Of a stretch of DNA of 39,375 nt, positions 10,982 to 32,612 are shown in pieces. The stretch lies in sequence record MZ234024.1. One strand, 5' to 3'. The notes under the pieces are model-generated. The model was not told where the DNA came from, did not search any database, and saw nothing but the letters and a program-made list of their open reading frames with translations. Positions within the stretch are counted from its first letter, which is position 1. Each line of letters starts with the position of its first letter. The DNA comes from Escherichia phage vB_EcoP-101136BS1. The position numbers and the translations under genes were made by a program.

Positions 10982-11209
10982 ATGAACACAATCACTGGTG
11001 CCATAACCAAAGGTTTTCGAGCAATTTTCGGTGAAACGCAAGAAGTATGCACCAATCATAAATTCGTACTTTCTTGCGTAGCAGGTGACGAGTTTGACGG
11101 GTTCGATAAACTGGTGGTTTGCGACCATTGCGGACAAGAGGCTATCCAACACTCAAACGGTAAATTTGAATTAATAGACGATAGCCTTACAGAAGGAGAC
11201 GGCGAGTAA
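10982..11209 (+). CDS. hypothetical early protein, 75 aa, Cys-containing and acidic
   Basis: RBS GAGGGA; contains VCTNH and VVCDHCGQE, a possible small metal-binding fold. No homolog recognised. Confidence 0.55.
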   Translation: MNTITGAITKGFRAIFGETQEVCTNHKFVLSCVAGDEFDGFDKLVVCDHCGQEAIQHSNGKFELIDDSLTEGDGE

Positions 11210-20491: not shown

Positions 20492-22195
<1,704 letters not shown>

Positions 22196-22206
22196 GGAGG
22201 AGTACA

Positions 22207-22371
22207 TTGCTAAGAAAACTTAAAGCTCGCTACCATCGGTTCATGTACAAATGGTGGAGCGACGAAGCAACCTGCCTGTCGAACATTCTGGGAGACCAGC
22301 GGTTCAACTCTGAGGCATGGAAGAAAGCTAACCGGAAGTTCATGTATCACTTCTTGCGTACAGACTTCTAG
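22207..22371 (+). CDS. hypothetical small basic protein (gene 4.3/4.5 region)
   Basis: ORF-track 22174..22371 overlaps gp4; a TTG at 22207 follows AGGAGG by 5 nt. Start is uncertain. Confidence 0.35.
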   Translation: MLRKLKARYHRFMYKWWSDEATCLSNILGDQRFNSEAWKKANRKFMYHFLRTDF

Positions 22372-30219: not shown

Positions 30220-30242
30220 GACTAAACTATCACTATAGGGAG
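30220..30242 (+). promoter_or_regulatory. phage RNAP promoter (phi10 position), best consensus copy
   Basis: CTAAACTATCACTATAGGGAGAC, with the same +1 to +6 GGGAGA as T7. Confidence 0.9.
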
Positions 30243-30345
30243 ACCAAGAGACAGACTCAAGGTTTCCCTATTACTTCAGTCCATACGGATTGGGCATACA
30301 GTAAGTAATAAACTTTATCTTTCAATTGAATAGGAGAATTATCAT

Positions 30346-31395
30346 ATGGCAAACGTTCCGGGTCAGAAAGTTGGTACAGACCAAGGTAAAGGCAAATCTG
30401 GTTCCGACGCTCTGGCGTTGTTCCTGAAGGTCTTTGCTGGCGAAGTCCTGACAGCATTCACTCGCCGCTCTGTAACTGCTGACAAGCATATTGTCCGTAC
30501 CATTCAGAACGGTAAGTCTGCTCAGTTCCCGGTCATGGGTCGCACCTCTGGTGTGTATCTGGCTCCGGGTGAGCGACTGTCCGATAAGCGTAAAGGTATC
30601 AAACATACCGAGAAAGTGATTACCATTGATGGTCTGCTGACTGCCGATGTGATGATTTTCGACATTGAAGACGCGATGAACCACTATGACGTGGCTGGCG
30701 AGTACTCCAACCAGTTGGGCGAAGCTCTGGCTATCGCTGCCGATGGTGCGGTACTGGCTGAGATGGCTATTCTGTGTAACCTACCGGCTGCATCTGATGA
30801 AAACATCGCTGGTCTTGGCAAAGCGTCTGTGCTGGAAGTTGGTACTAAAGCAGACCTGAACACTCCGGCTAAGCTGGGTGAAGCAATCATCGGTCAACTG
30901 ACCATTGCTCGTGCGAAGCTGACATCCAACTACGTTCCTGCTGGCGACCGTTACTTCTACACCACGCCGGACAACTACTCTGCAATCCTCGCGGCTCTGA
31001 TGCCGAACGCTGCTAACTATGCTGCGCTGATTGACCCAGAGACTGGTAACATCCGTAACGTAATGGGCTTCGTGGTTGTTGAAGTTCCACACTTGACTCA
31101 GGGTGGTGCTGGGGAAACTCGTGGTGCCGATGGTATCACTATTGCGACTGGTCAGAAGCACGCCTTCCCAGCTACTGCTACTGGTGATGTTAAAGTTGCT
31201 CTGGACAACGTTGTGGGCCTGTTCTCTCACCGTTCTGCTGTAGGTACTGTTAAGCTGCGTGACTTGGCGCTGGAACGTGACCGTGACGTCGATGCTCAGG
31301 GCGACCTGATTGTTGGTAAGTACGCTATGGGTCACGGTGGTCTGCGTCCAGAAGCAGCAGGCGCACTGGTTTTCACAGCGGCGTCAGCGGGTTAA
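30346..31395 (+). CDS. gp10A: major capsid protein (gp10A)
   Basis: 349 aa; ALFLKVFAGEVLTAF, KSAQFPV, YLAPGE, KHTEKVITIDGLLTADV, DIEDAMNHYDV, SAILAALMPNAANYAALIDPE, RNVMGF, VVEVPHLT, RSAVGTVKLRDLALER, KYAMGHGGLRPEAAGA match T7 gp10A. Confidence 0.97.
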   Translation: MANVPGQKVGTDQGKGKSGSDALALFLKVFAGEVLTAFTRRSVTADKHIVRTIQNGKSAQFPVMGRTSGVYLAPGERLSDKRKGIKHTEKVITIDGLLTADVMIFDIEDAMNHYDVAGEYSNQLGEALAIAADGAVLAEMAILCNLPAASDENIAGLGKASVLEVGTKADLNTPAKLGEAIIGQLTIARAKLTSNYVPAGDRYFYTTPDNYSAILAALMPNAANYAALIDPETGNIRNVMGFVVVEVPHLTQGGAGETRGADGITIATGQKHAFPATATGDVKVALDNVVGLFSHRSAVGTVKLRDLALERDRDVDAQGDLIVGKYAMGHGGLRPEAAGALVFTAASAG

Positions 31396-31658
31396 CGACC
31401 TTTAAGGCCCTCTCTACAGAGGGTCCTACCTTAGAGACGTATAGTTCTACGGTGGGAACCAGCCTGAAGGTTGACTTCCCTGAGCTTTCAGATGTGACCG
31501 ATTGGTCGCTGCTTGAGGTGACTACGCCTGATGGTGTTAGCTACTCCCGTAGAACCAACAGTCTCTACTTCAAGGCCACCTCTGGCGTGGAAGGTCTGGT
31601 GATTGTTGGGTATGACGGGACGCCTGTGCGTTCCTTCAACGTATCTTTCACAAACTAA
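31371..31658 (+). CDS. gp10B: predicted -1 frameshift extension of the capsid protein (gp10B-like minor capsid), 96 codons
   Basis: Heptamer G GTT TTC at 31368-31374, 7 codons before the gp10A stop. The -1 frame is open from there to 31658 (checked codon by codon), ending just before the terminator. Confidence 0.6.
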   Translation, partial: FHSGVSGLTTFKALSTEGPTLETYSSTVGTSLKVDFPELSDVTDWSLLEVTTPDGVSYSRRTNSLYFKATSGVEGLVIVGYDGTPVRSFNVSFTN

Positions 31659-31659
31659 T

Positions 31660-31703
31660 TGAAACCCCTTGGGTGCCTTCGGGTGCTTGAGGGGTTTTTT
31701 TTG
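31660..31703 (+). terminator. intrinsic terminator (T7 T-phi-like)
   Basis: GAAACCCCTTGGGTGCC-TTCG-GGTGCTTGAGGGGTT followed by U8; resembles T7 T-phi (AACCCCTTGGGGCCTCTAAACGGGTCTTGAGGGGTTTTTTG). Confidence 0.85.
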
Positions 31704-31717
31704 CTTAAGGAGGGACT

Positions 31718-31807
31718 ATGGTCCTTATTTACACAGGGTTAGCACTATTCGTCTTATTCTGGGCGTACCTGCTGTCCAGCTCACCGTCTAGCGCCTATGA
31801 CCGTTAA
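31718..31807 (+). CDS. possible small hydrophobic peptide, 29 aa
   Basis: Strong RBS TAAGGAGGG, 4 nt spacer; MVLIYTGLALFVLFWAYLLSSSPSSAYDR. Too short to score. Confidence 0.3.
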   Translation: MVLIYTGLALFVLFWAYLLSSSPSSAYDR

Positions 31808-31818
31808 GGAGTAAACCT

Positions 31819-32385
31819 ATGGCTCAATACATTCCACTGAATGCTAACGATGACTTAGATGCCATCAACGATATGTTAGCAGCTATCGGTGAACCAGCAG
31901 TCCTACAGCTTGACGAAGGTAACGCTGACGTCTCGAACGCTCAACGTATCCTGCATCGTGTCAATCGTCAGGTCCAAGCTAAAGGCTGGAACTTTAACAT
32001 CAACGAAGCTGCTGTCCTGACACCTGATGTCCAAGACAATAGGATTCGATTCCTGCCGTCTTACCTTCGGGTCATGACTGCTGGTGCTACCAGTTACTAC
32101 AGCAACATGGGGGGCTATCTCTATGACCTGTCCACTCAGTCCACGACCTTCACTGGACCAATTACAGTCGAACTGGTGGAGATGAAACCGTTCGCTGAGA
32201 TGCCTGTAGTATTCCGTGACTACATCGTTACCAAGGCTAGCCGTGAGTTCAACGCTAAGTTCTTCGGTAGCCCAGAGTCTGAACTGTACCTTCGTGAGCA
32301 GGAAGCAGAACTCTACCAGCAGGTGATGGAGTACGAGATGGACACTGGTCGCTACAACATGATGTCCGACATCGGGAGGGACTAA
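31819..32385 (+). CDS. gp11: tail tubular protein A (gp11)
   Basis: 188 aa; ILASIGEP, ANA.RIL..NRQ.Q..GW.FNI.E, IVTKASR.FN..FFG.PE, EYEMD.G.YNM shared with T7 gp11. Confidence 0.92.
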   Translation: MAQYIPLNANDDLDAINDMLAAIGEPAVLQLDEGNADVSNAQRILHRVNRQVQAKGWNFNINEAAVLTPDVQDNRIRFLPSYLRVMTAGATSYYSNMGGYLYDLSTQSTTFTGPITVELVEMKPFAEMPVVFRDYIVTKASREFNAKFFGSPESELYLREQEAELYQQVMEYEMDTGRYNMMSDIGRD

Positions 32386-32612
32386 TGGCTAGTCACAACC
32401 TGAAGATTCACCGCCAGCACTTTGGTCCGGTACAACTGGGTCTAAAGACAGCAGAGCTGAGACTTAACGACCGGGACTTTAAGGTTGGCGACTGGCTTAT
32501 CCTGAATGAGTGGGACAACGGGTATACTGGACAACAGGTAGCACGTAAGGTTGTCCACATTGCTGACGTTGGTGACATCGCTGAGGGATACGTCCTAATG
32601 AGTATGATTTAA
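32385..32612 (+). CDS. ASCH/PUA-like small protein (DUF3850-like), 75 aa
   Basis: Contains GLKTAELR, matching the ASCH GxKxxExR signature, then DRDFKVGDWLIL. Start overlaps the gp11 stop; ends 10 nt before gp12. Confidence 0.6.
   Translation: MASHNLKIHRQHFGPVQLGLKTAELRLNDRDFKVGDWLILNEWDNGYTGQQVARKVVHIADVGDIAEGYVLMSMI

Follow-up and report, generated by a model that had tools for sequence, protein, structure and literature searches.

A very probable programmed -1 frameshift in the capsid gene of Escherichia phage vB_EcoP-101136BS1 and the predicted immunoglobulin-like domain it would append

The major capsid gene of Escherichia phage vB_EcoP-101136BS1 (sequence record MZ234024.1; we refer to the entire 39,375 nucleotide stretch that was analyzed as the window) very probably undergoes the programmed -1 ribosomal frameshift of the T7 family, yielding not only the major capsid protein gp10A but also a longer gp10B which ends in an extension predicted to be immunoglobulin-like (Ig-like). 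The finding holds up as a textbook case of recoding for which near-identical phages already carry an annotation; the programmed -1 frameshift of T7 gene 10A/10B was reportedly described by Condron, Atkins, and Gesteland in 1991. Current understanding is unchanged by it, and our own additions are minor ones: assignment of the extension to a predicted Ig-like fold, a picture of three cassettes, the natural control provided by GTT and GTC codons at the slip site, and a covarying RNA hairpin. The argument rests on the following features of the window:

30346..31395, plus strand: open reading frame (ORF) of the major capsid protein gene, gp10A, 349 residues, 0 frame.
31368..31374, plus strand: slippery heptamer G GUU UUC, in register in the capsid gene, with GUU (Val) in the P-site and UUC (Phe) in the A-site.
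31374..31430, plus strand: -1 frame linker from translation, extension residues 1-19, HSGVSGLTTFKALSTEGPT.
31431..31655, plus strand: -1 frame domain, extension residues 20-94, predicted seven-strand Ig-like beta-sandwich.
31656..31658, plus strand: TAA stop of the -1 frame, end of gp10B.
31661..31702, plus strand: Tphi-like intrinsic terminator, consisting of a 17-bp hairpin (31661-31698) and a U-run, with a CCCC run inside.

At the heptamer the 0 frame reads CTG GTT TTC, followed by six sense codons and the gp10A stop (TAA, 31393-31395). In the -1 frame, GGT TTT is followed by 94 new residues (HSGVSGLTT...NVSFTN, 31374-31655), the first 22 nucleotides of the linker (31374-31395) overlapping the 3′ end of gp10A in the 0 frame; across the extension the -1 frame contains no stops, whereas the other two frames have 6 and 9. 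At 437 residues the predicted gp10B is longer than the 349-residue gp10A, and its predicted junction reads ...GALVF-HSGVSGL..., i.e. ...PEAAGALVFHSGVSGLTTFK. Only 2 nucleotides separate the -1 stop from the start of the terminator hairpin. The original prediction, made from the letters of the window, had placed G GTT TTC at 31368 shortly before the gp10A stop, with a -1 frame open from there through 31658, a 96-codon extension, and an end just before a terminator hairpin, and had likened the whole to the arrangement that produces T7 gp10B. All of this holds, the 96 codons being 94 new residues plus the two slip codons, and the likeness to T7 extending to the heptamer, its register and place, the homologous capsid gene, and a Tphi-like terminator behind the -1 ORF.

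The gene that carries the slip site encodes a T7-type (HK97-fold) major capsid protein. Specifically, i) gp10A belongs to the Pfam family Gp10A-like (PF21703, E 1e-104); ii) gp10A residues 1-345 match solved T7-type capsid proteins, among them the T7 capsid chain 2xvr_A at E 3e-145; and iii) relatives that are 99.9% identical label the counterpart of 30346..31395 major capsid protein. The heptamer count, by comparison, is at chance level (2 copies of GGTTTTC in the window versus 3.7 expected), and we dropped it as evidence; the second copy, at 11012, lies outside the slip register of any long gene. The significance of the slip site derives from its context, that is, from register, location, open frame, invariance, and tie to the extension.

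Invariance was assessed in 17 T7-like loci (T7, K1F, EcoDS1, MmP1, KP32, K11, TH50, Ro_S7a, PP74, CR8, GA2A, EV136_1, ZCEC02, LS2, EcpYZU01, Peacock, and the window) drawn from several genera. The heptamer is the same in all 17; the codons flanking it upstream vary at third positions, and the sequence downstream is unconserved. Behind the heptamer the -1 frame is open in 17/17 loci, and in each of the 13 loci with a window-type extension it has no stops, compared with 5 to 12 in each of the other frames. All seven positions of the heptamer, from the leading G to the trailing C, are thus conserved, which fits tRNA re-pairing rather than polymerase stuttering, and transcriptional slippage by the phage RNA polymerase on the T-run is a most improbable source of the shifted product. 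The site does contain a run of four T, but this is far shorter than the homopolymer runs known for polymerase slippage, and a -1 product would require an inserted base in the mRNA. Moreover, the shift in T7 has been attributed to tandem slippage on the ribosome, and the G_GU of T7 gene 10 is a recognized variant of the X_XXY_YYZ slip motif (PMC5009743).

A natural control for the slip site is found in viral contigs that differ in the codons used there. A scan of IMG/VR with the capsid C-terminus pattern HGGLRPExAGAxVF, all Val and Phe codons being allowed, yielded at least 120 related viral contigs. Among the matches listed, to which all contig counts here refer, a conserved long -1 extension is present in 90 of the 91 contigs with a GTT-TTY codon pair but in only 4 of the 29 with GTC, GTG, or GTA at the site (Fisher's exact test, p = 1.4e-20, although the contigs are akin and the p value therefore overstates their independence). 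The other 25 of these 29 lack the extension, the -1 frame being short and unconserved or running accidentally into gene 11, and the 4 that have one carry a Big_2 extension behind an ACAAAGG-type motif, i.e. a T3-type lysyl slip site A AAG. Judging from these sequences, it seems clear that the slippery codon pair persists where a shift has a payload to reach, and the contrast between GTT and GTC, tied as it is to the extension, cleanly confirms the T7 slip site by comparison. Exceptions to an intact frame among the GTT-TTY contigs number 2 of 91 (L029 and L047).

Several individual contigs deserve mention. L036, L039, L052, and L124 combine a non-slippery GTG-TTC or GTG-TTT pair with a Big_2-type -1 extension; a few bases further downstream there is an ACAAAGG or GCAAAGG motif, suggesting a T3-like A AAG lysyl slip site, and this suggests that the Big_2-type payload is served by two different slip sites. 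In L029 (IMGVR_UViG_2974604219_000001) a type C extension (the window type, see below) ends early after ...VTDWSLLEVTTPE, and the -1 frame then enters a small hydrophobic ORF (...LLTALGLFVSFWAIILLTGPCSPYDR); this layout could imply loss of most of the domain together with the terminator, or alternatively could be an assembly artifact. L078 (IMGVR_UViG_3300034127_000003) has a T7-type capsid gene with G GTT TTT, the slip site ending at 970 of the matched strand, and a -1 extension of 475 residues in which Big_2 (E 1.5e-10) is followed by some 390 residues without a Pfam match, including a GDSL-like 'FEGDSLT' motif; this extension may be a capsid-displayed enzyme delivered by frameshifting.

The -1 frame is under purifying selection, pairwise ratios of nonsynonymous to synonymous substitution rates (dN/dS) being 0.13-0.45 for most pairs. 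Homologs of the extension were found by tblastn in 454 phage records, almost all of them T7-like by name and record size, and in every inspected locus the homolog lies directly after gene 10. The T7 10B protein is generally regarded as dispensable in the laboratory, and one could therefore imagine that the extension is a decaying relic whose open frame is an accident of recent descent. This is hardly credible, because dN/dS is well below 1, homologs 40-50% identical across genera retain an intact frame, the predicted fold is a confident one, and lineages without the extension have (among the matches listed) lost the slippery codon pair as well.

Gene callers divide the region differently, reporting fragments of 44 to 87 residues with differing starts, and most records of the closest relatives annotate it as a separate hypothetical protein. 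In the window the corresponding feature is:

31452..31658, plus strand: 68-residue 'hypothetical protein' ORF from GTG, given by automatic annotation and judged to be an artifact of an unmodeled frameshift.

The original prediction had allowed that the -1 ORF might be translated from an independent start as a separate protein, in which case it would be a small gene beginning at GTG 31452 and encoding a free product of 68 residues, for example a decoration protein. We consider this highly unlikely. ORFs of 68-87 residues labeled 'hypothetical protein' or 'minor capsid protein' are indeed present in 101118UKE1, U8, KP32, GA2A, ZCEC02, LS2, and PP74, and the KP32/K11 group has one in-frame GTG with GAGG 8 nucleotides upstream. 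But the first in-frame start among relatives ranges from extension residue 8 to residue 31 and varies in codon type, EcpYZU01 has no in-frame start before residue 31, and no Shine-Dalgarno sequence was found upstream of the window GTG (GACGTATAGTTCTACG). The 26 codons between heptamer and GTG are open in every lineage, indels in the heptamer-to-start stretch being confined to whole codons, and the extension is nearly confined to contigs that retain the slippery codon pair (again among the matches listed). GTG 31452 corresponds to extension residue 27 and lies past predicted strand A (residues 22-26); initiation there would delete this strand, and the 68-residue ORF is disfavored as a real product on the model for that reason. 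A combination of both routes, in which the frameshift fusion is accompanied by a free copy of the domain made by weak internal initiation, is also unlikely: internal starts are plausible in some lineages, but neither the starts nor the Shine-Dalgarno sequences are conserved, and no free domain product was reported in the work on K1F or Kvp1 (PMC6277420, PMC2579914). Taken together, the open frame upstream of the starts, the dN/dS values, and the lack of conservation of the starts argue that the extension is expressed by gene 10 frameshifting and not as an independent gene.

Records and experiments on relatives are consistent with expression by frameshifting. Phage Peacock (MK903279), with 98.6% DNA identity, has an equivalent joined coding sequence (21012..22324, 437 residues, 'minor capsid protein'). 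The record of Citrobacter phage CR8 (HG818824), in which the heptamer is the same and the extension is 50% identical to that of the window, describes 10B as made "by a -1 internal frameshift" with "matches in mass spectrometry analysis"; the CR8 genome announcement mentions neither mass spectrometry nor a frameshift, so the mass spectrometry evidence for CR8 is that of the GenBank record note. The gp10B proteins of Peacock and CR8 do not differ in any essential respect from that of the window. Elsewhere, frameshift peptides of Kvp1 10B have been detected by mass spectrometry (PMC2579914), about 10% of translations in T7 give 10B (PMC1635266), a fusion of green fluorescent protein to K1F g10b gives stable fluorescent phage (PMC6277420), and the K1F gp10B locus has been used for capsid display (PMC13370021).

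For the window phage we infer slippage, its efficiency, and incorporation of the product into the virion as follows. Most ribosomes would stay in frame on gene 10 and produce the 349-residue gp10A; in a minority, the tRNA-Val and tRNA-Phe would slip in tandem by -1 on G GUU UUC (31368-31374), and these ribosomes would read 94 codons in the -1 frame, stop just before the terminator, and produce the 437-residue minor capsid protein gp10B. Because gp10B keeps the whole capsid body, it would coassemble into the shell with gp10A, and would carry on the outside of the head an Ig-like beta-sandwich (about 75 residues) attached through a flexible linker (about 19 residues). By analogy with T7 and K1F, where gp10B C-termini are used for display, the domain is likely to be exposed on the surface, and the virion probably displays tens of copies of it. 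A role in glycan adhesion has been suggested for the Ig-like domains of T3 and other phages (PMC13320782), and by the same token the domain may serve as a weak accessory adhesin for surface glycans. An Ig-like domain on the virion would be relevant to glycan or mucus adherence and to immunogenicity, and equally to capsid display by way of the gp10B C-terminus, for which T7 and K1F are already employed.

The fold of the extension is a matter of prediction. An AlphaFold2 model built on 21 sequences has seven beta strands, with a predicted local distance difference test score (pLDDT) of about 90 over residues 20-94; residues 1-9 and 11-14 score below 50 (block means of 45 for residues 1-10 and 51 for residues 11-20), and the first 19 or so residues of the extension look disordered in the model. 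Foldseek against the PDB returned as top match the Ig-like C-terminal domain of lambda gpV (E 1.4e-3, TM 0.55), and the structural neighbors in BFVD are first a family member and then Big_2 and Ig-like proteins. We therefore predict that the extension is an Ig-like beta-sandwich, although one without a class in sequence libraries: Pfam gives nothing for the window extension at E <0.1, and thus no membership in Big_2, I-set, or FN3; the extension corresponds to phrog_7473, whose function label is 'unknown'; and no solved structure covering the extension was found by a sequence search. A profile search of 1.84 billion representative proteins returned only 12 matches, which beyond T7-like capsid-extension ORFs were weak and doubtful. 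The main non-phage match is a protein with four BACON repeats and a whole-protein E of 1e-9, a hint of a possible relationship to BACON, but each of the nearly identical repeats contributes only about 18 bits and the score is their sum; the Pfam BACON models (PF13004 and PF19190) do not match the window domain.

The extensions found behind the capsid genes of T7-like phages are of three types:

Type A (T7, K1F, EcoDS1, MmP1): 45-56 residues, low-complexity tail, slip site G GUU UUC.
Type B (T3 and relatives): about 89 residues, Pfam Big_2 (E 4e-10), slip site C CCA AAG in T3.
Type C (window, KP32, K11, CR8, GA2A, PP74, and others): 91-97 residues, no Pfam family, phrog_7473, slip site G GUU UUC.

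No homology was found between the window extension and either of the other two types. The T7, K1F, and MmP1 tails (45-56 residues) do not align with the window extension, and the T3 Big_2 extension gives a BLASTP E >1 with it, the window extension having no Pfam Big_2 match. Thus the window and T7 share the heptamer G GUU UUC, its register a few codons before the 10A stop, a homologous capsid protein, and a -1 ORF that ends just before a Tphi terminator with the core AACCCCTTGGG...GAGGGGTTTTTT; but the T7 extension is a low-complexity stretch of 56 residues and not a domain, that of the window has 94 residues and is not alignable with it, and the 10A stop follows the site by 3 codons in T7 and by 6 in the window. 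That the extension is longer than that of T7, as had been noticed from the outset, is therefore explained by its being a different, nonhomologous module. T3 gp10B resembles the predicted gp10B of the window in that -1 frameshifting equips a T7-type capsid protein with a C-terminal Ig-like domain of about 90 residues, but in T3 the shift takes place at C CCA AAG rather than G GUU UUC, and the added domain is a Pfam Big_2 (E 4e-10), a promiscuous domain found in tail and fiber proteins of many unrelated phages. Addition of Ig-like domains by frameshifting was described by Fraser et al. 2006, as cited in PMC5009743 and PMC13320782. A few contigs among the matches listed pair a Big_2 extension with a G GUU UUC site.

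K1F is the type species of Kayfunavirus, the genus to which the window belongs by sequence (see below). K1F and EcoDS1 have genus, heptamer, and terminator in common with the window, but their extension is short and T7-like (48 residues), and when the 361-nucleotide stretch 31340-31700 is used as a query only its first 50 or so and last 50 or so nucleotides align with them (about 27% covered). We therefore conclude that the cassette between slip site and terminator has been exchanged within the genus. Evidently, on this sequence evidence, the two conserved anchors were retained while evolution replaced the payload that they flank. More broadly, we regard the following proposition as evenly balanced: the extension may be an unclassified Ig-like capsid-display domain, restricted to T7-like phages and representing one of at least three nonhomologous cassettes (the short T7/K1F tail, the T3 Big_2, and this domain) that are exchanged between slip site and terminator even within one genus, and the covarying hairpin described next, located 20-26 nucleotides 3′ of the slip site, might belong to a long-range stimulation of gene 10 frameshifting.

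The downstream anchor is well conserved, the terminator core AACCCCTTGGG...GAGGGGTTTTTT being present in 16/17 loci (LS2 has GAGGGAAATTTTT), 2-15 nucleotides past the -1 stop. In T7, the CCCC run in the terminator, more than 200 nucleotides away, is reported to be involved in gene 10 frameshifting, the stimulation of which is otherwise unexplained (PMC5009743). A canonical stimulatory hairpin or pseudoknot was not found 5-9 nucleotides after the heptamer, where the sequence is unconserved across groups; this agrees with the description of T7 gene 10 stimulation as unexplained in the same review. We also considered a conserved G-run near the slip site that might pair with the CCCC of the terminator, and dropped it because GGGGG is present in T7 but not in KP32 or K1F. 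There is, however, a hairpin further downstream:

31400..31436, plus strand: RNA hairpin, by folding, in the linker-coding stretch, 25 nucleotides 3′ of the heptamer and 4 nucleotides after the gp10A stop.

This hairpin is more distant from the heptamer than a canonical stimulator would be. Every type C group has a hairpin that starts 19-28 nucleotides after the heptamer and 1-10 nucleotides after the gp10A stop. In the window group (9 distinct relatives) pairing holds in 91% of cells, with a single compensatory pair, which makes it the weaker of the two cases; in the KP32 group (20 distinct sequences) the hairpin has 18 pairs, with 98.6% of cells paired and two compensatory pairs, a level of covariation reached by 0 of 500 shuffles. 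The KP32-group counterpart in KP32_192 (L004) is located at approximately 1521-1563. A stretch of 23 consecutive nucleotides in the KP32 group (GCGTAAATACCTTTAGTGCTCGG) shows no variation at any codon position in 19 of the 20 distinct sequences, the remaining one having a single substitution there.

We wish to emphasize the consequence for annotation. In most records of LM33_P1-like Kayfunavirus, which include therapeutic-candidate coliphages, and of Klebsiella Przondovirus, the extension is either a separate hypothetical protein or unannotated; a joined gp10B coding sequence would be the correct annotation for both.

The capsid region of vB_EcoP-101136BS1 is 99.9% identical to that of Escherichia phage vB_EcoP-101118UKE1 and 99.5% identical to that of LM33_P1, both of which belong to Kayfunavirus (K1F-like, T7 subfamily Studiervirinae), and by sequence the window is a Kayfunavirus genome, i.e. 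that of a K1F-like coliphage of the T7 family. The first 25 kb of the window have a best match of at most 98% identity among deposited phages; together with the near-identity of the capsid region to known Kayfunavirus, this indicates that the window represents a new isolate of a known species group. A capsid chain of 347 residues solved as PDB 9vvq matches residues 1-344 of the window gp10 at E 4e-214 and is labeled 'Minor capsid protein'; this looks like a naming slip, as in the record of phage U8, since the length fits a major capsid protein of the gp10A type.

Two small ORFs of the plus strand lie downstream. Between genes 11 and 12, at 32385-32612, there is an ORF of 75 residues whose relatives are labeled 'RNA-binding protein' or DUF3850; the K1F annotation has no counterpart of it. 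Directly after the terminator, at 31718-31807, an ORF of 29 codons (MVLIYTGLALFVLFWAYLLSSSPSSAYDR) is preceded by a strong Shine-Dalgarno sequence (TAAGGAGGGACTATG) and, to judge from its sequence, probably encodes a small hydrophobic membrane peptide; it is annotated as hypothetical in 101118UKE1, and in Peacock a segment of about 100 bp is missing and gene 11 comes directly after the terminator. Upstream of the capsid gene we note one further element, read from the sequence by position and consensus:

30221..30243, plus strand: sequence resembling a phage RNA polymerase promoter, ACTAAACTATCACTATAGGGAGA.

This candidate promoter lies 103 nucleotides upstream of the capsid gene start, and EcoDS1 has an annotated promoter at an equal distance from gene 10.

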